Shown in pieces: positions 50,263 to 59,358 of a DNA stretch of 64,000 nucleotides (the stretch's first letter is position 1; every line of letters begins with the position of its first letter). Position numbers and translations under genes: made by a program. The DNA lies in assembly GCA_043821645.1 (NCBI GenBank), contig JBDRCO010000068.1:192001-256000 (forward strand), given 5' to 3'. This stretch comes from Pseudomonadota bacterium (GTDB lineage: Bacteria; Myxococcota; JACRCW01; JAFGSX01). The notes beneath the pieces were generated by a model. That model was given only the letters and a program-made list of their open reading frames with translations, did not search any database and was not told where the DNA came from.

Positions 50263-50571
50263 GTGCACGACGACGATTTTCCAGAGTTGCGCGAGCTGCA
50301 GGCCATGCAGAAAAAGCGCCACCGCCAGGTCATCGCCGGGCTGCTGGCAGGCGGAGTGGCCTCCATGGCTGGCGGTCTGGCCATCTTCGGACTGGCCGGA
50401 GGTGAGAACCCCGCGCTCGGGGGTGGCGCGGTGGGCATCGTGCTCATCGGCGTAGGTGCGATCATGATCGGGCGAGCACTGGTCAGCGCGTTCACGGACA
50501 TCGACACCAGGGTCCGGGACGACCTGATCGCCCCGATCCTGCCCGACGACGGCGACGACGAAGCATCATGA
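50263..50571 (+). CDS. Small 2-TM membrane protein
   Basis: GGAGG then GTG at 50263; two Gly-rich hydrophobic helices; ATGA overlap with the kinase gene. Confidence 0.7.
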   Translation: MHDDDFPELRELQAMQKKRHRQVIAGLLAGGVASMAGGLAIFGLAGGENPALGGGAVGIVLIGVGAIMIGRALVSAFTDIDTRVRDDLIAPILPDDGDDEAS

Positions 50572-52547
50572 GTGGCGAGACCCTGCCGGTCGGCACCCGT
50601 CTAGGGAAGTACCTGTTGCAGCGCCTGCTCGGCAAGGGCGCGATGGGGGCCGTCTACCTCGCCGTTGACGAGCTGCTGGATCGACAGGTGGCGGTCAAGA
50701 CCATCACCCCGACCTTCGCCGGGGACGCGCAGTTCAGGGCCCGGTTCCTGCGCGAGGCGAGGACGCTGGCCAAGCTCAATCACCCCAATGTGGTGCAGAT
50801 CTACGACGTCCACGACGTCGGGGAGGCCTCCCGGGACGACCTGCCGTTCCTGGTGACCGAGTTTGTCGATGGCAAGGACCTGTACACCATCGTCCGCGAC
50901 GAGAAGCACTTGCCCTGGGGTCGCGCCTGTCTGCTGCTGAGACAGATCGCCCTCGGGCTCTCCGCGGCCGCGGATCGGGACATCGTGCATCGCGACGTCA
51001 AGCCCGGCAACATCCTGGTGTCGATGGGGGACGTGGTCAAGGTCACCGACTTCGGTCTGGCCAAGCCGCTGGTCGGCGACCAGAGCCTGACCCAGGCCGA
51101 GGTGGTCATGGGAACGCCGGACTACATGGCTCCGGAGCAAGCCATGGGGCGGGCCATCGACTGGCGAGCAGATCAGTACGCCCTGGCCTGCACCATGTTT
51201 CAGATGCTCTGCGGGCGGACGCCTTTTGGCGACGGCGCCCCTGCCGAGATCTGTGCGCGCCAGGTGTATGACAGCTGGCCCGACGTCACGGCCCAGGTCG
51301 TCGACGTGCCACCCCGCCTGGTCGAGATCCTGGGCCGCATGGCGCAGAAGGACCCGGCAAGGCGCTTCGGGAGCTACCTTGAACTCCTGGATGCCATCGA
51401 CGACGTCCTGGATCCAGGGCGCGTGCGCGACCGCGAGCGGGCCTTCGTCGTCGTGACCAGTGGCGGCCAGACCGGGTTGCGTGTGCGCGTCGCGGATCGG
51501 CCCCTCATCGTCGGGCGCCTCCCCGAGTGCGATCTGGCCCTCGAGGATGCCCGGGCCAGCCGCAAGCACGCGGCCTTCCAGTATGGCAGCGAGGGCCTCG
51601 AGGTCCGCGACCTGGGGAGCCGCAACGGCCTGCTCGTCAACGACAGGCCAACGCGCTGGTCCTCCCTGGTCGACGGGGATCGCGTGAAGCTAGGGGATAC
51701 CAGCCTGTGCATCAGCATCGAACGTGTGGCACCGGATCCCGCGCTCGCACTGGCCGCCAAGGCCTCGGCTTTCGATGGCGTCGATGTCACCGCCGAGCGC
51801 CCCATGCCGGACGCCTTCACCGTACCTGCGCCAGAACCCTCGGCGTCGGTGTGGAAGGATGCCCATGAGAACAAAGGCCCGAGTGCCCTGACCCGTGTGG
51901 TGTCGCGCTCCGCGGCGCAGCGCATGACCGACGCATCCCACCTGAGCCGCCCCGGCGTGCTGCGCTGCCGGCGGGTGGACGTCGTGGTGGTGCGCTTCAA
52001 CCTGACCGGAGTGGTACGGCTGGCGGACGCGCTGGATCCGGACCAGCTCTCGAACCAGCTCAACGCCGCGCACGAGGTCATCGTGGATCAGGTGTTCCAG
52101 CACCAGGGCAGCCTCGACACCCTGACCGGTGACACCGTCCTGGCCGTGTTCGGCGCACCCGCCGAGGTGGCCGAGGCCGAGGCCAAGGCCGCCGCCGCCG
52201 CCTATCGCGGGACCCAGGCCGTGGTCGAGCTGCAGCGCGCTCACGAACCCACACAGCGCCTGGGCGTGCGCGCTGGGGTCGGCGCAGGGCCCGTGGTCGC
52301 CGGCCAGTTCGGGACCCACGACCGCAAGGACTACGGTGTCATTGGCCAGGCTGCCGAGATCGCTCGCGTGCTCGGCGCCATGGCGCCCGCGGACGGTGTG
52401 CTGCTGCAAGATGAAGTGGCACGGCGCCTGGGCGCCGGCTTTGACCTGCAGCCCCGGCCGGAGCAGACTCTCAAGCTGCACGGCCACGAGTATGCGGTGT
52501 TCGTGCTCACGGGGCTGCGATCAGCAACAGGAGAATGGCTGCGATGA
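50568..52547 (+). CDS. Ser/Thr kinase, FHA domain and degenerate class III nucleotide cyclase fusion
   Basis: GKGAMGAVY, HRDVKPGN, DFG, APE; FHA GR..SRKHA..GSRNG; cyclase-like GDTVLAVFG, GPVVAGQFG..RKDYGVIG. Confidence 0.9.
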   Translation: MSGETLPVGTRLGKYLLQRLLGKGAMGAVYLAVDELLDRQVAVKTITPTFAGDAQFRARFLREARTLAKLNHPNVVQIYDVHDVGEASRDDLPFLVTEFVDGKDLYTIVRDEKHLPWGRACLLLRQIALGLSAAADRDIVHRDVKPGNILVSMGDVVKVTDFGLAKPLVGDQSLTQAEVVMGTPDYMAPEQAMGRAIDWRADQYALACTMFQMLCGRTPFGDGAPAEICARQVYDSWPDVTAQVVDVPPRLVEILGRMAQKDPARRFGSYLELLDAIDDVLDPGRVRDRERAFVVVTSGGQTGLRVRVADRPLIVGRLPECDLALEDARASRKHAAFQYGSEGLEVRDLGSRNGLLVNDRPTRWSSLVDGDRVKLGDTSLCISIERVAPDPALALAAKASAFDGVDVTAERPMPDAFTVPAPEPSASVWKDAHENKGPSALTRVVSRSAAQRMTDASHLSRPGVLRCRRVDVVVVRFNLTGVVRLADALDPDQLSNQLNAAHEVIVDQVFQHQGSLDTLTGDTVLAVFGAPAEVAEAEAKAAAAAYRGTQAVVELQRAHEPTQRLGVRAGVGAGPVVAGQFGTHDRKDYGVIGQAAEIARVLGAMAPADGVLLQDEVARRLGAGFDLQPRPEQTLKLHGHEYAVFVLTGLRSATGEWLR

Positions 52548-54181: not shown

Positions 54182-55225
54182 TCACGGGAGCGGCGCGTCG
54201 AAAACGCAGCTGGCGGCGTCCCCCTGGGTCGGGTGCTGGTCGTCGGAGTCATCATAGTACGTCGTGGCAAGCTCGCAGGCCCAGCACTGGGTGGCGAAGA
54301 TCTCCGTCGACACCAGGTCGCCACCGCGGATGGTGGCATCGGCACGCCCGGCGCCGCAGGACTGCCACTGGGCGCAGATGCTGAGCTGCTCCAGGCTCGA
54401 GAAGATGAAGCCCGCCACGAAGTCCGCGTTGACCACGAAGCACATCTCCCCCGAACCATCGGCCTTGCCGTCGTAGCTGTAGTCGGCAGAGCTCGGCAGC
54501 AGGGTGCCCTCTTCGTGGACCTCGCGCACCTGCACCTCCAGGTGCACGTCACCACCAACCTGGACGTAGTCGATGGTGAGCCGGCCCTGGTCATCCACCT
54601 TGCCCATGCCCGCGCCCCGCACCGCATTGAGGTCGAGGGTCAGGCTGCCGCTGCCCGTGCGGGCACCTCCCTGGGGCTCCGAGGGTGTGTAGGATCCGTA
54701 CAGGACGCGCACCAGCCCCGAGTCGTCGACCTCGGTGTCGCAGGTGATGTCGTCGGCAAGTTCCTTGTCGAAGGCGCCGCGCATGGCGTGCAGGCAGTAG
54801 CTGAACTGATCCGAGTCGGCGGACAGCACACGGTGTATCTCGAAGCGCAGGGAGATGTTGTCGCGCAGCACGTGCACCGGTCCCCACACGCGCAGGTTGG
54901 CCGCGCGCCGCGTGGGCGCATAGCCGTGCGCGATGTTGTCGACGAGATCGAGCACCGCGAACGTGCCGGTGTTGATGGCCGTGGACACCGAGCCCGCCAG
55001 GCAGCGCAGGTTGTCGTCGGTGCACGCGCCAAGCCCCTGGGTCTGGCTGCCGGCCCGGTCCTGGCCGTAGTTGGCGCCTGGCGCCTTGAGCGCCAGGGTG
55101 GCCTTGTCCGGCAGTGCGGACAAAAAGATCAGGTCCTCGTTGGACAGGTTGCCGCAGGCCGTCAGCCCGGCCACGCCCAGGCAGGCGACGAGGAGACTGA
55201 GGAGCCTGGTGGCGCGCGTGTTCAT
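54182..55225 (-). CDS. Lipoprotein of unknown function (last gene of the ECF-caspase locus)
   Basis: GLTAC lipobox followed by GNLSNEDLIFLSALP; Cys pairs; beta-rich C-terminal half. Confidence 0.85.
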   Translation of the reverse strand: MNTRATRLLSLLVACLGVAGLTACGNLSNEDLIFLSALPDKATLALKAPGANYGQDRAGSQTQGLGACTDDNLRCLAGSVSTAINTGTFAVLDLVDNIAHGYAPTRRAANLRVWGPVHVLRDNISLRFEIHRVLSADSDQFSYCLHAMRGAFDKELADDITCDTEVDDSGLVRVLYGSYTPSEPQGGARTGSGSLTLDLNAVRGAGMGKVDDQGRLTIDYVQVGGDVHLEVQVREVHEEGTLLPSSADYSYDGKADGSGEMCFVVNADFVAGFIFSSLEQLSICAQWQSCGAGRADATIRGGDLVSTEIFATQCWACELATTYYDDSDDQHPTQGDAASCVFDAPLP

Positions 55226-55236
55226 CTCATCAATCC

Positions 55237-55264
55237 TGACACCGTGTGCGCTCGATCACCGAAA
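55237..55264 (-). promoter_or_regulatory. Candidate ECF promoter, copy 2 (lipoprotein gene)
   Basis: TTTCGG-TGATCGAGCGCACA-CGGTGTCA then 11 nt to ATG; same boxes and spacing as 58302-58329. Confidence 0.75.
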
Positions 55265-55281
55265 CGATTTGTTCCCTCGCC

Positions 55282-56910
55282 TCAAAAATCCACCCAGGCG
55301 CTGGCCAGCCCCTCGACGTAGCCGAAGCTGCGGTTCTGGTCCACCGTGTACAGCAGGTAGTGCGCGCGCAGCATGGCCTCGACGTGGAACCAGTCCCAGG
55401 GCGACCAGCCGACCAGCCCGACCAGGCCCGGGCTCATGGTCAGATAAAACTGGTTGTCGAGGGGCCCCCCGGCCTCGAAGGACCGCAGCATGAACAGCGT
55501 GGCCAGCCGGCCGCCTCCCGCCAGGTTCACCGGACCGAGGGCGTGCTCGTACAGGATCGAAGTCCCCAGCTGCACCTGGCTGTAGCGGATGGGGTACTCG
55601 AGGGTGCCCAGGGCACCTCCCGCGTCCAGGCGCAGGGTATCCTCGCGGGTGCCGAAGCCCAGATCGGCGGACAGCAGCAGGTGCCGCCGCAGCAGGTTGT
55701 GCAGCCGTGCCTCGAGGCTGACGAAACCGATGGGCGGGAACAGGTCAGCAGACATCGAGGCCGGTGAATCGAAGACCGCCTGGGCTCCAGCGCCCAGGGA
55801 GAGCGACAGCGTGATGGTACCATGCTGCAGTTCTTCCTCGAGCACCGGCGTGCCCTTCGCGTAGTCGTCCTCGAAACGCACGCGCTCCATGCCTGTCTCG
55901 TCGACAACCATGCTGCCGCGCGAGGCCACGCGCACCCGTTGCATGAGAAGGTGGTCGGGCAGGCGCTTCTTGATCACGTAGGCGCCACCCTTGACCGCCA
56001 GGCGCCGGGTCTCCCCCTTGACCTTGTCGATCTCGGCAACGATCAACTGGCGCTCCTCGTCGACGAGGTAGTACTGCCCGGCGAGGTCCTCGGGGAAGGT
56101 CAGCACCGCCCCTCCCTGGTCAAAGGAGGTGAGGATCACGTCTCCGGCCCCGCTCAGGTCGTAGTCGTAGGTCGGGTGCTGGGCCCCGGAACGGGTCGAG
56201 GCGGTGGCTGCCACGGTGCGGCTGTAGGCGTAGGCATAGGCCTCCCCCAGGGTCACCCGACCGTCGGAATTGGCGTCGGCGGCACCGCGCAGCCCGGTGG
56301 CCACGTAGTGGGTGAAGAAACTGCCCTGGATATCATCGGACTCCTGGCTGGCCTCGTCGGCAGAAGAGGAGGCGATGATGACCTGACCCCGGGCTGCCAG
56401 GCTGTGGTCCACGGCGATGACAAAGGGCGGCGCCAGCTGGCCTCCCTTCTCGCGGGTGATGGCACCGGCGCCGCAGGAATCGAGCAGGGCAATGCGCACC
56501 CGCGCCCGCGAAGCGTCGAGAAGTGACTTGAGCAGCTTCATGTCCAGCCGCGAGTCACCCATGCGCAGGATGCCGTCCTTGGCGTGGCCTGAGTAATAAA
56601 ACAGCACCAGCGCCTCGTCGCCGCGATGCTGGATGTGGCCCACCTTTGCCTCGAGCTCGCGCAGGGCGCGCAGCACGTCGGGGGCCGCCGGGTTCTCCAG
56701 GTGTGCAACATTGTGGGGCGAAAAGCCGCCGAGCGAGCTCAGCACCTCGGCCATGCGCTGGGCGTCACGGCCTGCATAGCGCAGGGTGGCCAGACCATCG
56801 CCGCCGAAGTTATTGCTGACCAGCAGCGCCAGGCGCTCGGTGACCGCCCGTGCCATCGACGAGGTCGCCAGCACCGTGGCCAGCACCGCGAGCGCGGCAA
56901 GGCGCTTCAT
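55282..56910 (-). CDS. Exported caspase-family (peptidase C14) protease with probable C-terminal outer-membrane beta-barrel
   Basis: Signal peptide; LRYAGRDA, FYYSGHA (His), LDSC (Cys), ASQES, SFFTH, QHP; alternating amphipathic strands ending AWVDF. Confidence 0.9.
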   Translation of the reverse strand: MKRLAALAVLATVLATSSMARAVTERLALLVSNNFGGDGLATLRYAGRDAQRMAEVLSSLGGFSPHNVAHLENPAAPDVLRALRELEAKVGHIQHRGDEALVLFYYSGHAKDGILRMGDSRLDMKLLKSLLDASRARVRIALLDSCGAGAITREKGGQLAPPFVIAVDHSLAARGQVIIASSSADEASQESDDIQGSFFTHYVATGLRGAADANSDGRVTLGEAYAYAYSRTVAATASTRSGAQHPTYDYDLSGAGDVILTSFDQGGAVLTFPEDLAGQYYLVDEERQLIVAEIDKVKGETRRLAVKGGAYVIKKRLPDHLLMQRVRVASRGSMVVDETGMERVRFEDDYAKGTPVLEEELQHGTITLSLSLGAGAQAVFDSPASMSADLFPPIGFVSLEARLHNLLRRHLLLSADLGFGTREDTLRLDAGGALGTLEYPIRYSQVQLGTSILYEHALGPVNLAGGGRLATLFMLRSFEAGGPLDNQFYLTMSPGLVGLVGWSPWDWFHVEAMLRAHYLLYTVDQNRSFGYVEGLASAWVDF

Positions 56911-57725
56911 GGCGCGACCTTGACGATGGAGATCGAGGTCTGGTGGACACCCGGGTCGTCGACGGGGAGGCGCTCGACCCGGCTCAGGTCCACGCCCTCT
57001 TGCACCAGCTTCAGGGCCGCGGACTGGGCGAGCTGATGCAGCATTTCCACGTCACCGTCGTCGGAGAACACCGCGAAGAAGCGCTCGGGTCCTACCGCGT
57101 CGTCGAGGATGACAGATCCCGGGAGCGGGCTCAGGGTCTCGACCCCCTTGGTTTGCTGGGTCAGGGCTTCGGCGTGGTAGACCGTGACCGCGCCACGACC
57201 ATCGACGCCCAGCAGCACCACGCTGCGCGCGCTCCGCGCGGGGCGCAGCAGGAACTGGATCTGCTGCCCGGCCTTGAGCTGCTCACCGTCATCACCGCGC
57301 CGGGCACCGGCGGGCTCGCGCACCAGGTAGCCGATTCCAGCCAGGTCGCTGCCCTTGCTGCGCAGGCCCGAGTCGTCGACGGGTGTGACCACCAGCAGCA
57401 CCACGGCTGCGGCCGCTGCCACCGCGACCGAACCCAGGGCCGGCCAGCGCCAGGCCCGCAGCTTCTCGACCCAGCTGCGGCGAGCTTGAGCGCGCCGCTC
57501 GAAATCCGCGGCAAAGCGTTCGAAGGGCATGACCGCGGAAAAAGCCGCGGCGTCGGAGCGGAGCCCGGCCACCAGCGATGCACAGTCCAGGCAGGTCTCC
57601 AGGTGCTGGTCGATGTCTCGCCGCTGTTCTGGCGTGCCCTCGCCCACCAGGTGCTGCTGCAGCCGGTGCGAGGTGACCCGCGAGCAGGTGGTGTGTGGCG
57701 TGAGATCGAGCAGCTTCGATGCCAT
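56907..57725 (-). CDS. Zinc-binding (ZAS/zf-HC2) transmembrane anti-sigma factor with DUF4384-like periplasmic domain
   Basis: HLETCLDC (HxxxCxxC); TM; LRSKG; LKAGQQIQF..VVLLGVDGRGAVTVY..GPERFFAVFS. Confidence 0.85.
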   Translation of the reverse strand: MASKLLDLTPHTTCSRVTSHRLQQHLVGEGTPEQRRDIDQHLETCLDCASLVAGLRSDAAAFSAVMPFERFAADFERRAQARRSWVEKLRAWRWPALGSVAVAAAAAVVLLVVTPVDDSGLRSKGSDLAGIGYLVREPAGARRGDDGEQLKAGQQIQFLLRPARSARSVVLLGVDGRGAVTVYHAEALTQQTKGVETLSPLPGSVILDDAVGPERFFAVFSDDGDVEMLHQLAQSAALKLVQEGVDLSRVERLPVDDPGVHQTSISIVKVAP

Positions 57726-57735
57726 GATGCGTCGC

Positions 57736-58290
57736 CTAGATCGGCGCCTCCTTGAGTTCGACCCAGGGCATGATCTTCTCGAGTTCGCGCCGCGCCGTGC
57801 GCAGGAAGCCGCGCAAGCGCTTGCGCACCGTGGGCACGCTCAGCCCCACGGCCTGGGCTATCTCCTCCTGGGTCATCTCGTCGACGAAGTAGTACACCGC
57901 CAGTTCCTGCACCTGGCGATCGCAGCGCGCCAGCAGGGCTCGCAGCAGGTCCAGGCGCTCGATCTGGCTGTGCTCGTCATCCCGGGTCTGCTCGGCAACC
58001 TTGCCCAGCTGCAACAGGTCGGTCTTCCAGCGTGCCTTGCGTGCGCGCAGGATGTTGAGGCAGTGGTTGGTGGCGATGCGCGTGATCCAGGTCAGGCGGC
58101 TGGCCTGGCCGCGGAAGCCTTCGAGATTGCCCAGCACCTTGATGAAAACGTCCTGCATGGCGTCCCGCGCTTCCTCGTCGTCTCGCAGCAGGTAGCGGCA
58201 GCGGCTGTAAACGCGCGTGGCGTACAGCTCGTACAGCTCCCGGAGCACTTCGCGGTCGGTCGCCACCTTGGTGAGCCTCTCGACCGCCAT
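57736..58290 (-). CDS. ECF RNA polymerase sigma factor
   Basis: Region 2 EARDAMQDVFIKV and TWITRIATNHCLNILR; region 4 MTQEEIAQAVGLSVPTVRKRL. Confidence 0.95.
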   Translation of the reverse strand: MAVERLTKVATDREVLRELYELYATRVYSRCRYLLRDDEEARDAMQDVFIKVLGNLEGFRGQASRLTWITRIATNHCLNILRARKARWKTDLLQLGKVAEQTRDDEHSQIERLDLLRALLARCDRQVQELAVYYFVDEMTQEEIAQAVGLSVPTVRKRLRGFLRTARRELEKIMPWVELKEAPI

Positions 58291-58301: not shown

Positions 58302-58329
58302 TGACACCGAGGCCAGGCTGCGGCCGAAA
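58302..58329 (-). promoter_or_regulatory. Candidate ECF promoter, copy 1 (autoregulatory, sigma gene)
   Basis: TTTCGG-CCGCAGCCTGGCCT-CGGTGTCA then 11 nt to ATG 58290. Confidence 0.75.
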
Positions 58330-58497
58330 AAATATTAGCGTGGATCTGAACTGCGCCAAACATCCTGCGCTATTCGGATGTTGGGTGCCAGCAGCGGACC
58401 CGCGCGGGGACGGATTCGGGTCCTTGGGCCATCTCTCTGGGTCAGGGATGTTATTCTCCTAGTGCTATGATGTGTATATATTCGTCATGACAATGGG

Positions 58498-58525
58498 TTG
58501 ACAAGCCATCGTGCCGCTTCATGAT
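58498..58525 (+). promoter_or_regulatory. Possible sigma70-type promoter for the 58579 gene
   Basis: TTGACA-N16-CATGAT preceded by an AT-rich tract. Confidence 0.45.
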
Positions 58526-58578: not shown

Positions 58579-59358
58579 ATGGCACACCGGCACGCGTTTA
58601 CCGGGCTCCTGGCCCTTTCGTTGCTCGCCGCCGCAGGCTGCGGCCCCAGCGAGGAAGTTCGCACACCCCTCGATGCAGATCCGGCCGCCGAGGTCGCCAT
58701 CACCAACTTCACCATCTACGACGGGGTGATGGGCAGCAAGGAAGTCATGGTCTACATCAAGGTGGATCGCGAGATCTCGCGGGTCGAGTTGCTGTGCGAT
58801 GACGCCACCGAGCCTGCGGCCTCGGCCGAGGGTCGGGTCACCTCACTGATGTGGGACAGCACGCGCTGCGCCGAGGGTGTTGTGAACCTGGTGGCGCGGG
58901 TGGTGGACGAGGACGATCACACCTACGACAGCCCGGCCATGTCCCTGGTGGTGGTCAATCGAGGCCGGGTGGTCTCCCTCACCGAGGGCAACCTGGGCAC
59001 GATCCGCATCCCGACCACCTACGACGGCACCCAGGAAGTCGACGTCAAGCACCACTGGAACAACCCGGCCGGGCAGACCCGGGTGGTGGCCATCGCGACC
59101 TGGAACCTGACGGCCAGTGATCCTGTGTGGATGATCGAGGGATCGGTGGGCTGCGGCGTGTGTCCGCACAGCGGCAGCTTGTGGGGCCAGCCCGAGGAGA
59201 CCGACGCCAGCCCCTTCATCATCGACATGCGCGCCAGCGACATCAATCAGACCTGGCTCGACACCACCCAGGCCTTCTTCCACCTGAGGCCGCTGGATGC
59301 CCAGAATCACCTGGGTGAGAATCTGCCCTACACGATGGCCGTGTACCTGTTCGAGTGA
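58579..59358 (+). CDS. Hypothetical lipoprotein (Ig-like N-terminal half)
   Basis: GGAGG RBS; AAGC lipobox; WDST..EG...LVARVVD Ig-like motif; GCGVCPHSG. Confidence 0.8.
   Translation: MAHRHAFTGLLALSLLAAAGCGPSEEVRTPLDADPAAEVAITNFTIYDGVMGSKEVMVYIKVDREISRVELLCDDATEPAASAEGRVTSLMWDSTRCAEGVVNLVARVVDEDDHTYDSPAMSLVVVNRGRVVSLTEGNLGTIRIPTTYDGTQEVDVKHHWNNPAGQTRVVAIATWNLTASDPVWMIEGSVGCGVCPHSGSLWGQPEETDASPFIIDMRASDINQTWLDTTQAFFHLRPLDAQNHLGENLPYTMAVYLFE

Follow-up and report, generated by a model that had tools for sequence, protein, structure and literature searches.

A conserved myxobacterial cassette of ECF sigma factor, anti-sigma factor, exported caspase homologue and lipoprotein, with a putative site-1 protease role for the caspase

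Introduction

Can an exported caspase homologue, encoded directly after an anti-sigma factor, be the protease that releases the cognate sigma factor? The question is raised by four co-oriented genes on the minus strand of the window (the whole 64,000-nt stretch of DNA analysed here), in which the ORF calls give an ECF sigma factor, a ZAS anti-sigma factor, a C14 caspase and a lipoprotein. The original prediction for this locus was that an envelope-located caspase senses an outside cue, cuts the anti-sigma factor and induces the lipoprotein, with no CRISPR involved. All coordinates below are window positions of features on the minus strand.

Genetic organization and conservation of the cassette

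The ORF coordinates confirm the predicted arrangement, with 10 nt between the sigma stop and the anti-sigma start and a 4-nt ATGA overlap of the anti-sigma and caspase genes at 56907-56910, which suggests coupled translation. A further 56 nt separate the caspase from the lipoprotein gene. Exact matches to all four protein sequences, with identical boundaries, are present in a public collection.

The expectation that similar gene strings occur in other myxobacteria was borne out by a neighbourhood survey of the best 80 related loci from species genomes. A sigma factor gene lies upstream of the caspase gene in 65/65 of those loci whose flank was 1700 nt or longer, an anti-sigma gene lies upstream in 67/68, and a member of the lipoprotein family is encoded directly downstream in 70/70. 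Three of the four other caspase paralogues in the source genome also have an anti-sigma gene of the same type directly upstream, and several paralogous copies of the cassette were found in many genomes. Judged by these neighbourhoods, the four-gene cassette is a syntenic unit that is inherited together and common in myxobacteria.

The sigma factor and a candidate promoter

The first gene (57736..58290) encodes a group 4 ECF sigma factor of 184 aa, which matches Sigma70_r2 (52.4 bits) and Sigma70_r4_2 (27.1 bits) of Pfam, as well as TIGR02937 (83.6 bits; cut-off 42.9). Its start was placed at the ATG at 58290, while a longer TTG frame reaches 58359. A candidate ECF-type promoter, TTTTC-N18-GTGTC (58303..58330), ends 12 nt before this ATG and is the sole match in the 64-kb window, where 0.09 would be expected. 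A like motif occupies a like position upstream of the sigma gene in 8/17 related loci, and in a larger set it was found in 9/65 loci compared with 1/65 in the reversed-sequence control. Genome-wide enrichment of the motif was not observed (7 matches; 10 in the control), nor was a second copy found within the operon. The candidate promoter is a weak, clade-limited lead.

The anti-sigma factor and its DUF4384 domain

The second gene (56907..57725) encodes a single-pass class I (ZAS-type) anti-sigma factor of 272 aa, and its predicted architecture could be read directly from the sequence. A cytoplasmic zinc-type motif, H41-x3-C45-x2-C48 (57582..57605), is followed by a hydrophobic stretch taken as the transmembrane helix at about residues 94-116 (57378..57446) and by a periplasmic part of ~155 aa (56910..57350), which comprises a DUF4384-family domain and a C-terminal extension with an invariant K269. 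The window protein scores 19.7 bits against zf-HC2, just below the cut-off of 22.2, and the H/C/C triplet is kept in 57/75 aligned homologues. Among 18 members of the anti-sigma family, zf-HC2 was matched by 13 and DUF4384 by 13 (best E 1.6e-6). Matches of the family profile to the solved domains of RslA, RsiW, DdvA and ChrR are weak (E 0.0024-0.11).

DUF4384 has been found together with caspase-fold proteases before. It is fused to 23 orthocaspases in cyanobacteria (Table 1, PMC8283722), and the C-terminal domains of Csx30 include one group described as DUF4384 (bioRxiv 10.1101/2022.08.17.504292). In related genomes, a caspase gene lies directly downstream in 19/30 DUF4384 loci. In these associations of sequence, DUF4384 is repeatedly paired with caspase-fold proteases.

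The exported caspase homologue

The third gene (55282..56910) encodes a Sec-exported C14 caspase homologue of 542 aa, orthocaspase/metacaspase-like, with a C-terminal outer-membrane barrel. The signal peptide that had been proposed is readable at residues 1-22 (56845..56910; MKRLAALAVLATVLATSSMARA followed by VTE, with the putative break at ARA/V), and the N-termini are hydrophobic in 20/20 aligned homologues. A Peptidase_C14 domain covers residues 26-249 (56164..56835; 55.3 bits, cut-off 21.4, Pfam E 1e-14) and carries the catalytic residues H109 (56584-56586) and C146 (56473-56475), at the places where the SGH and DSC motifs of the dyad had been noted. The dyad is invariant in 20/20 and 80/80 caspase homologues, and D144 is likewise kept in 80/80. 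The nearest solved sequences to this family are those of plant metacaspases 4, 9 and 1, and in the alignment with metacaspase-4 the DsC of the family pairs with DSCHSG. Conservation among the paralogues extends to about residue 355, and residues 250-355 (55846..56163) form a conserved middle domain of no recognised family, for which no Pfam match was obtained in 20/20 homologues and which is unrelated to the anti-sigma DUF4384 by hhalign (probability 1%).

Residues 361-542 (55285..55830) are predicted to form a small outer-membrane beta-barrel, as the original prediction had it. The ESM Atlas model of this part matches the OMP_b-brl, OmpA_membrane, OmpW and Opacity clusters (185-218 aa) with TM 0.75-0.81 both ways. 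Pfam OMP_b-brl was matched by 1/20 homologues (E 0.0011), and by a crude alternation score the region holds ten amphipathic segments that overlap. The terminal Phe that had been taken as a sign of a barrel is real in the window protein, but is shared by only 20/77 complete homologues. With ~180 aa, the barrel belongs to the small OmpA/OmpW size class, and barrels of this kind usually have a topology that would put the N-terminal caspase domain in the periplasm and not on the surface. This model-based placement of the caspase domain leaves the sensing of an outside cue by the caspase unsupported.

The lipoprotein

The last gene (54182..55225) encodes a Cys-rich lipoprotein of 347 aa with the lipobox LTAC, whose Cys24 (55154-55156) is kept in 75/77 aligned homologues. 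It has no match in Pfam, NCBIfam or PADLOC and belongs to a large unnamed family, the profile of which recovers 1921 representative clusters at E<=0.001, 744 of them still at E<=1e-30. Its induction by the sigma factor is plausible only as that of the last gene of an operon which is probably self-regulated.

A motif shared by the caspase and the anti-sigma factor

A short motif, (R)xKG, is common to both proteins. In the anti-sigma factor it is R122-S-K124-G125 (57351..57362), at the boundary between the linker and DUF4384, and represents a candidate cleavage site. These three residues are invariant in 18/18 family members, and among 75 homologues R122 is kept in 64, K124 in 72 and G125 in 73. 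In the caspase it is R153-E-K155-G156 (56443..56454), 7-10 residues past the catalytic Cys, where the caspase fold suggests a loop and where it is a candidate self-processing site; R153 is kept in 79 of 80 homologues, and K155 and G156 in all 80. Metacaspases and orthocaspases cleave after Arg or Lys (PMC3501461; PMC6426788).

The P1-like residues of the two motifs were compared in 136 distinct caspase/anti-sigma pairs. They are K/K in 123 pairs, R/R in 8 and L/M in 1, with the mismatches K/M in 2, K/R in 1 and P/R in 1. On the caspase-domain tree, independent contrasts for the P1-like residue number 2 if only supported branches are counted and 3 if all are; both supported contrasts have the same direction, which is not significant in a sign test (p 0.5). 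The P3-like Arg gives 5 contrasts, averaging 1.6 in the same direction and 0.5 in the opposite one. The motif is absent from the six DUF4384 proteins that do not resemble anti-sigma factors. However, it lies at a fixed distance of 26-29 residues ahead of the Pfam DUF4384 match in the relatives and could therefore serve this subfamily as a structural cap, and two anti-sigma factors (L119 and L122) keep RxKG without a caspase gene directly downstream. The geometry also counts against cutting of the anti-sigma factor, as only ~6 residues separate the motif of the window protein from the membrane helix and a short linker holds the caspase at the opposite membrane.

Proposed mechanism and alternative explanations

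The sequences are best explained by a self-contained envelope signalling cassette. An envelope cue, perhaps relayed by the lipoprotein, would activate the periplasmic caspase, which would then act as a dedicated site-1 protease and cut the anti-sigma factor at (R)xKG, between the membrane linker and DUF4384. The caspase may also process itself at its own (R)xKG, where caspase-fold enzymes usually do so. An RseP-type site-2 protease would clear the anti-sigma stub and free the sigma factor, which would transcribe at least its own operon. A protein of the site-2 protease family Peptidase_M50 was found in this genome (best E 7.7e-53). The obligate linkage, the ATGA overlap, the recurrence of DUF4384, the shared motif with its co-variation, the M50 protease and the precedent of DdvA are points for cutting by the caspase. 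Even so, we hold this putative cleavage, for which the one sequence-level support is the shared and partly co-varying motif, to be slightly less probable than an even chance, and a caspase acting as site-1 protease is a similarly tentative explanation of the whole cassette. The parts of the original prediction that stand are the synteny, the dyad, the export, the barrel and the parallel to Csx proteins, while the outside cue is not supported.

It is possible, though we consider it rather unlikely, that the sigma/anti-sigma pair senses through DUF4384 alone or through a general protease, and that the caspase and the lipoprotein are products of the operon. The caspase would then be an envelope enzyme that acts on something else, with a part in processes such as envelope remodelling, developmental lysis or predation. 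One candidate promoter ahead of all four genes with no second motif inside agrees with this, as do the general knowledge that ECF operons commonly carry their own effectors and the non-significant independent-contrast test of the motif. A cell-death role has been suggested for Myxococcus metacaspases (PMC3501461). However, caspase and anti-sigma type are linked almost without exception, and the linkage recurs among the many paralogues that a genome carries, which is more what a signalling module would show than a shared effector. The company of DUF4384 with caspase-fold proteases in unrelated settings and the common (R)xKG also speak for the caspase as a part of the signalling.

Less probable still is contact in place of cleavage, in which the outer-membrane caspase and the anti-sigma DUF4384 would touch across the periplasm like FecA and FecR, the contact shielding the anti-sigma factor from a general site-1 protease or keeping the caspase inactive; in the latter case, the anti-sigma factor would regulate the caspase and not vice versa. 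The layout is that of cell-surface signalling, as is generally known (see also PMC11637429), and a domain that regulates or docks would be as compatible with the cis fusions of DUF4384 to orthocaspases as a substrate would. The cassette, however, has no TonB-dependent transducer, and the catalytic dyad and the pocket residues are invariant in 80/80 homologues, which argues that catalysis matters.

An anti-phage module of the kind of DdvS/DdvA or of the type III-E craspase, with a phage cue acting through the sigma factor on defence genes, is very improbable. In its favour, DdvA and Csx29/Csx30/RpoE, conceptually the closest described relatives, are defence-linked, and the caspase has a sub-threshold match to the NCBIfam 'caspase, EACC1-associated type' (70.4 bits; cut-off 140). 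However, the five proteins scanned with PADLOC show no CRISPR or other defence signature, in line with the original prediction as far as CRISPR is concerned (no family match for the caspase, the anti-sigma factor, the lipoprotein and a neighbouring lipoprotein, and a marginal helix-turn-helix match for the sigma factor). The surrounding genes have unrelated housekeeping or signalling functions, and many myxobacterial genomes carry the cassette as a stable part of their core and not as an island.

Comparison with known systems

To our knowledge, site-1 cuts are otherwise made by serine proteases or metalloproteases of the inner membrane. None of these is known to have the caspase fold or to be tied to the outer membrane, and none is known to come as an obligate third gene in the operon of its sigma factor. 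The logic proposed here, a site-1 cut in the periplasmic part of a single-pass anti-sigma factor, a cut by an M50 site-2 protease and release, is otherwise that described for RpoE-RseA (DegS, RseP) and SigW-RsiW (PrsW) (PMC11506125).

The gene association itself was noted in 2012. Asplund-Samuelsson et al. placed four of the five metacaspases of Myxococcus xanthus DK1622 in predicted operons with sigma factors, the same association as here, reported it also from Anaeromyxobacter, Haliangium, Sorangium, Ralstonia and Fibrobacter, and favoured a role in cell death (PMC3501461). The original remark that no mechanistic description is known holds for the accessible text of that paper, where neither an anti-sigma factor nor a lipoprotein, a motif or a mechanism is mentioned and the words 'barrel' and 'DUF4384' are absent (0 occurrences each).

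In DdvA of M. xanthus, as described, the proposed site-1 protease before RseP is a CHAT domain of caspase fold in the periplasm (PMC11506125). DdvS/DdvA share with the present cassette the phylum, an ECF sigma factor, a single-pass ZAS anti-sigma factor, a periplasmic caspase-fold His-Cys protease and a proposed site-1 cut in the linker beside the membrane helix (PMC6061681; PMC11506125). The cleavage mechanism is proposed in both cases. According to the same accounts, the CHAT domain of DdvA is fused to the anti-sigma factor behind TPR repeats, within ~900 periplasmic residues. Cleavage is proposed to occur in trans between the partners of a dimer, and a CBASS/CRISPR island is under DdvA control. 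The cassette, by contrast, encodes its protease as a separate C14 protein anchored in the outer membrane, has DUF4384 as the anti-sigma sensor and has no defence genes nearby.

In the type III-E craspase, Cas7-11/Csx29 (TPR-CHAT) is described as cutting Csx30, which holds RpoE with Csx31 (bioRxiv 10.1101/2022.08.17.504292). Both have a caspase-fold protease whose substrate, putative in the cassette, is an anti-sigma-like protein in complex with an ECF-type sigma factor, and the parallel is stronger than originally claimed, as DUF4384 of the anti-sigma family (13/18) also occurs in some Csx30 C-termini. The craspase as described there is cytoplasmic, RNA-guided and CRISPR-linked with a CHAT protease, in contrast to the periplasmic parts and the C14 protease of the cassette.

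FecA-FecR-FecI resembles the cassette in its outer-membrane barrel with a periplasmic N-terminal domain, its single-pass anti-sigma factor and its ECF sigma factor. The cassette differs in that it has neither a TonB-dependent receptor nor a signalling domain, and carries instead a small OmpA/OmpW-like barrel of which the periplasmic domain is a protease.

Gene organization of the cassette

The four genes of the cassette are all located on the minus strand and encode a sigma factor of 184 aa (57736-58290, read from the ATG at 58290), an anti-sigma factor of 272 aa (56907-57725), a caspase homologue of 542 aa (55282-56910) and a lipoprotein of 347 aa (54182-55225). The choice of start codons is supported by the public protein collection, which contains identical sequences of all four proteins. 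The spacing described in the original prediction was reproduced exactly, with 10 nt between the sigma and anti-sigma genes and a 4-nt ATGA overlap between the anti-sigma and caspase genes; the gap between the caspase and lipoprotein genes is 56 nt. The sigma factor matches Sigma70_r2 (52.4 bits, cut-off 24), Sigma70_r4_2 (27.1 bits, cut-off 25.7) and the ECF superfamily model TIGR02937 (83.6 bits, cut-off 42.9). By these profiles it is classified as an ECF (group 4) sigma-70 factor possessing only the regions sigma-2 and sigma-4. None of the equivalog-level models scored above its cut-off, and therefore no named ECF group was given to it.

A candidate promoter, TTTTC-N18-GTGTC, was found on the minus strand at 58303-58330, ending 12 nt ahead of the sigma ATG. 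It is the sole match in the 64-kb window, where 0.09 would be expected, and a similar motif precedes the sigma gene in eight of 17 related loci. A looser form was found in 9/65 loci of a larger set, versus 1/65 in the reversed-sequence control. The element is thus regarded as a candidate self-regulated promoter, restricted to the closest relatives. Its use as a regulon finder was rejected, given the 9/65 in the wider loci and a genome-wide search for TTTTC-N16-18-GTGTC that returned 7 matches versus 10 in the control, without enrichment; nothing in a de novo dyad count exceeded its control either.

The genes flanking the cassette encode a Ser/Thr kinase-FHA-cyclase fusion, DUF7793, Macro-domain, CN-hydrolase and amidohydrolase proteins, and are unrelated to it. 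The fusion (50568-52547, plus strand) is 659 aa long, and its cyclase part is an adenylate/guanylate cyclase catalytic domain. A divergent gene at 58579-59358 (plus strand) encodes a second lipoprotein, of 259 aa with the lipobox AAGC and without Pfam or PADLOC match, and is preceded by a sigma-70-like promoter match at 58498-58525. It was rejected as a cassette member because it is absent from every other fetched locus, and is considered a local neighbour.

Conservation of the cassette

Matches were found in 28 of 41 genomes of the same phylum, up to 21 in a single genome, and full-length relatives are present in many of them. The order sigma factor, anti-sigma factor, caspase, lipoprotein recurs in 20 fetched loci wherever the contig allowed. 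At least 582 related stretches were recognized among the 598 pattern matches listed, with one genome per species, and the best 80 of these were taken as the sample for neighbour counts. Nearly all of the 80 are labelled myxobacteria, including the cultured genera Myxococcus, Corallococcus, Cystobacter, Archangium, Pyxidicoccus, Citreicoccus and Anaeromyxobacter. A co-oriented ECF sigma gene lies upstream in all 65 of the sampled loci whose upstream flank extends to 1700 nt or more. Profile searches of the same sample placed an anti-sigma factor of the cassette family directly upstream of the caspase in 67/68 loci and a lipoprotein of the cassette family directly downstream in 70/70. In 39 of the 49 wide loci they also located another member of the lipoprotein family at a second position; the window possesses one copy only. 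In the window's own genome, three of the four other caspase paralogues have a cassette-type anti-sigma gene directly upstream. These counts of gene neighbours show that the four-protein cassette has been inherited and multiplied as a unit.

One locus, L065, comes from a record titled Comamonas sp. KCTC 72670 and contains a typical myxobacterial cassette, with 41% identity over the whole caspase. A single Comamonas species was likewise reported among otherwise myxobacterial DdvA-like anti-sigma factors (PMC11506125). The label of L065 may be wrong, or the cassette genes may have been transferred.

The anti-sigma factor and its predicted DUF4384 domain

The anti-sigma factor possesses, as read from its sequence, the motif H41-x3-C45-x2-C48, one membrane helix at about 95-116 and a periplasmic part of about 155 residues. 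With zf-HC2 it scores 19.7 bits, just below the cut-off of 22.2; the same model matches 13 of 18 members of the anti-sigma family (best E 2.2e-7), and the family profile gives weak matches to the solved RslA, RsiW, DdvA and ChrR. From the motif, the helix and the position after the sigma gene, the protein is predicted to be a class I (ZAS-type) membrane anti-sigma factor.

The periplasmic part was tentatively assigned through the family. The window protein itself has no match to Pfam DUF4384 (PF14326) at E<=1, and a six-frame family search of its genome found no DUF4384 at E<=0.01. The domain matches 13 of the 18 aligned family members (best E 1.6e-6), and the DUF4384 region of the family aligns along its whole length with the window protein. 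In related genomes, a caspase gene follows directly downstream on the same strand in 19 of 30 DUF4384 loci. DUF4384 is listed as an accessory domain fused to 23 cyanobacterial orthocaspases (Table 1 of PMC8283722). It also constitutes one group of the C-terminal domains of Csx30 in type III-E CRISPR systems, where Csx30 binds RpoE and is cleaved by the caspase-like Csx29; protease domains are, according to the authors, a frequent fusion partner of the family (bioRxiv 10.1101/2022.08.17.504292). The analogy to Csx29/Csx30/RpoE drawn in the original prediction is thereby tied to a probable common domain.

An invariant Lys, K269 (56919-56921), is present in 18/18 family members three residues from the C-terminus, and adds a second conserved basic position to the periplasmic part of the anti-sigma factor. 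In three loci from related genomes (L119, L122 and L134), the genes for a sigma factor and a DUF4384 anti-sigma factor of the cassette type are not directly followed by a caspase gene; the RxKG motif described below is retained in two of these loci, and in L119 a caspase gene is found about 2.5 kb away on the opposite strand. Longer proteins were scanned for anti-sigma-caspase fusions and none was found, which is weak evidence.

The caspase and its membrane barrel

The caspase matches Peptidase_C14 over residues 26-249 with 55.3 bits (cut-off 21.4). The catalytic dyad reported earlier was found at the positions claimed, as H109 and C146, and these residues together with D144 are kept in 80/80 homologues. 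The score and the His-Cys dyad assign the protein to Peptidase C14 (caspase/metacaspase/orthocaspase). It scores 70.4 bits against NCBIfam NF047832 (EACC1-associated caspase), below the cut-off of 140, and was not placed in that family. The nearest solved sequences are plant metacaspases. The D-x-C of the family (D144 in the window protein) aligns with the metacaspase DSCHSG, and the predicted proteolytic activity and cleavage after Arg or Lys are taken from this one alignment.

The ESM Atlas includes the exact caspase sequence, and its model underlies the barrel assignment. Residues 361-542 of the model align with OMP_b-brl, OmpA_membrane, OmpW and Opacity clusters of 185-218 aa, and the TM scores against these small outer-membrane clusters are 0.75-0.81 in both directions. 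Pfam OMP_b-brl does not match the window caspase and matches one of 20 homologues (E 0.0011), and a crude alternation score marks ten overlapping amphipathic segments in the same residues. Taken together, the fold matches, the homologue match and the alternation score lead to the prediction that the C-terminus is a small outer-membrane beta-barrel of the OMP_b-brl/OmpA_membrane/OmpW class. The C-terminal Phe seen in the window caspase is present in only 20 of 77 complete homologues.

Barrels of OmpA or OmpW size keep their two ends on the periplasmic side and leave no room for a folded passenger to pass through. Most likely, therefore, the caspase domain and the conserved middle domain (residues 250-355) hang from the outer membrane into the periplasm. 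This topology opposes the proposal of direct sensing of an outside cue by the caspase. The middle domain is unrelated to the anti-sigma DUF4384 region by hhalign (probability 1%).

The lipoprotein family

The fourth protein carries the lipobox L-T-A-C24, as read from its sequence, and the lipobox Cys is kept in 21/21 relatives and in 75 of 77 homologues. The signal peptide and lipobox identify it as a predicted bacterial lipoprotein, probably lipid-anchored in the same compartment as the caspase. It has no match in Pfam or NCBIfam. The family is large and unnamed, its profile matching 1921 representative clusters at E<=0.001; Pfam domains were detected in none of eight longer relatives, and the search for solved relatives gave nothing credible, its single match (E 0.0088) having no matched stretch. 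No relation to the tested parts of the caspase and the anti-sigma factor was detected by hhalign. Two protein relatives, P0012 (634 aa) and P0033 (624 aa), each contain two stretches matching the lipoprotein profile and appear to be tandem duplications of the unnamed domain. The lipoprotein could be a sensor, an inhibitor of the caspase, or a mere output.

A motif shared by the caspase and the anti-sigma factor

The motif (R)xKG was found in both proteins. In the caspase it is R153-E-K155-G156, 7-10 residues past the catalytic Cys; K and G are invariant across 80 homologues, and R is conserved in 79 of them. In the anti-sigma factor it is R122-S-K124-G125, located after the membrane helix, and the corresponding counts across 75 homologues are 64 for R, 72 for K and 73 for G. 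Among relatives the distance from helix to motif varies, and the distance from motif to DUF4384 match is steady at 26-29 residues, so that the motif sits where the linker meets the folded domain. It is absent from all six DUF4384 proteins that are not anti-sigma-like, and the fold itself thus does not require it. Self-processing of caspase-fold enzymes usually takes place in the loop past the catalytic Cys. Metacaspases and orthocaspases are described as cleaving after Arg or Lys (PMC3501461; PMC6426788).

Sixty further paralogous loci were added, each caspase being paired with the anti-sigma factor directly upstream, and a total of 136 distinct pairs was obtained after removal of duplicates and empty contexts. 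The P1-like residue, which precedes the Gly, is Lys in both proteins in 123 pairs and Arg in both in eight; the remaining caspase/anti-sigma combinations are K/M (two pairs), L/M, K/R and P/R (one pair each). The P3-like Arg was counted where the P1-like residue is basic in both partners (132 pairs), and is present in both proteins in 93, in neither in 20, in the caspase only in 11 and in the anti-sigma factor only in eight. Relatedness was controlled with a caspase-domain tree built without the motif columns. On supported branches two independent contrasts are left for the P1-like residue (three on all branches); both go in the same direction (sign test p 0.5), and the co-variation is not significant after relatedness. 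For the P3-like Arg there are five contrasts, averaging 1.6 the same way, 0.5 opposite and 2.9 with no difference. In the most divergent pairs the anti-sigma motif was chosen as the last [KR]G of the aligned stretch, a rule that favours finding one. Since the contrasts are few and the rule is of this kind, the co-variation is a lead and not a result.

Paralogues in which R or L/M rather than K precedes the motif Gly in both proteins occur at loci L186, L184, L013-L015 and L141, and also at L198, L201, L202 and L206. These natural variants are useful for specificity tests.

Discussion

The reading we prefer, to which we give slightly less than an even chance, is that the outer-membrane-tethered periplasmic caspase would be the dedicated site-1 protease of its own anti-sigma factor. 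A cut at (R)xKG would remove the DUF4384 domain, an M50 protease would complete the proteolysis, and the released sigma factor would drive at least its own operon. Peptidase_M50 is encoded in the window's genome (best E 7.7e-53). The genes and residues recognized in the original prediction are confirmed, and its interpretation is supported in part: a caspase-driven switch of the anti-sigma factor agrees with our reading, and the sensing of an outside cue by the caspase does not.

The chief difficulty for cutting is geometry. The motif of the window anti-sigma factor is about six residues from the inner-membrane helix, and the caspase is held on a short linker from the outer membrane. One way round would be that the cut takes place only when the barrel is not yet or improperly inserted, or when the envelope is deformed. 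It is unlikely, though a serious alternative, that the caspase and the lipoprotein are outputs of the operon only. That the anti-sigma factor and the caspase bind without cutting, or that the anti-sigma factor regulates the caspase, is quite improbable; the catalytic residues kept in every homologue argue that catalysis matters. It is very improbable that the cassette is a defence module: among the five proteins scanned with PADLOC (the cassette and the divergent lipoprotein), four have no match and the sigma factor has a marginal helix-turn-helix match (E 0.00098).

The site-1 protease reading may be extended in two ways. It is possible, although we would sooner doubt than accept it, that outer-membrane free-standing bacterial C14 caspases serve as dedicated site-1 proteases in a large family of trans-envelope switches that has so far gone unrecognised. 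Every such caspase would process itself and then cut its own DUF4384 anti-sigma factor at (R)xKG or xRG, the site being changed in step by the pair, and the protease/DUF4384/ECF-sigma logic of the cytoplasmic CRISPR craspase would be used for envelope sensing. More boldly, the barrel would hold the protease off the inner membrane, so that the cut would take place only when barrel insertion or envelope spacing fails, and the caspase would act as a sentinel for the assembly of the outer membrane, a role also ascribed to RcsF.

The role of bacterial caspase homologues is a long-standing question, discussed mostly in terms of cell death. The cassette offers a concrete, cheap and easy test of a signalling role, with one protease, a candidate substrate, a candidate four-residue site and its own promoter as reporter; it is widespread, and orthologous cassettes are present in culturable, non-pathogenic myxobacteria. 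If the caspase is the site-1 protease, a new protease class would be added to anti-sigma proteolysis, envelope signalling would be linked through DUF4384 to the logic of craspase, and the unproven model of DdvA would gain support.

Comparison with known systems

The association of sigma and metacaspase genes has been in print since 2012: four of the five metacaspases of M. xanthus DK1622 are in predicted operons with sigma-70-family factors, and such operons were also reported in Anaeromyxobacter, Haliangium, Sorangium, Ralstonia and Fibrobacter (PMC3501461). The searched text of that paper contains no anti-sigma factor, DUF4384, barrel or mechanism. In the literature searched we found no mechanistic account in which a free-standing caspase acts on an anti-sigma factor, only the DdvA paper being relevant, and nothing on anti-sigma factors in work on DUF4384. 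The words 'caspase', 'C14' and 'DUF4384' do not occur in the main text of the ECF re-classification (PMC7826278), whose supplementary group descriptions may cover the cassette. Already known are the sigma-metacaspase gene association and the kind of system to which the cassette would belong, the ECF sigma/anti-sigma proteolytic switches.

The cassette differs from type III-E craspase, which consists of Cas7-11, the TPR-CHAT protein Csx29 and Csx30/Csx31 beside rpoE: PADLOC gave no defence match for the cassette proteins, and the neighbours are the kinase fusion, DUF7793, Macro, CN-hydrolase and amidohydrolase genes. It also differs from cell-surface signalling of the FecIRA type, with no Plug, TonB_dep_Rec or FecR match in the four proteins. 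Of the systems described so far, DdvS/DdvA of M. xanthus comes closest. Its anti-sigma factor carries a fused periplasmic CHAT domain of the caspase fold, which is proposed, though unproven, as the site-1 cutter ahead of RseP (PMC11506125). The anti-sigma factor of the window is not of the DdvA type: it has no TPR or CHAT match, and possesses instead a periplasmic part of about 155 aa tentatively assigned to DUF4384, with the caspase encoded by a separate gene.
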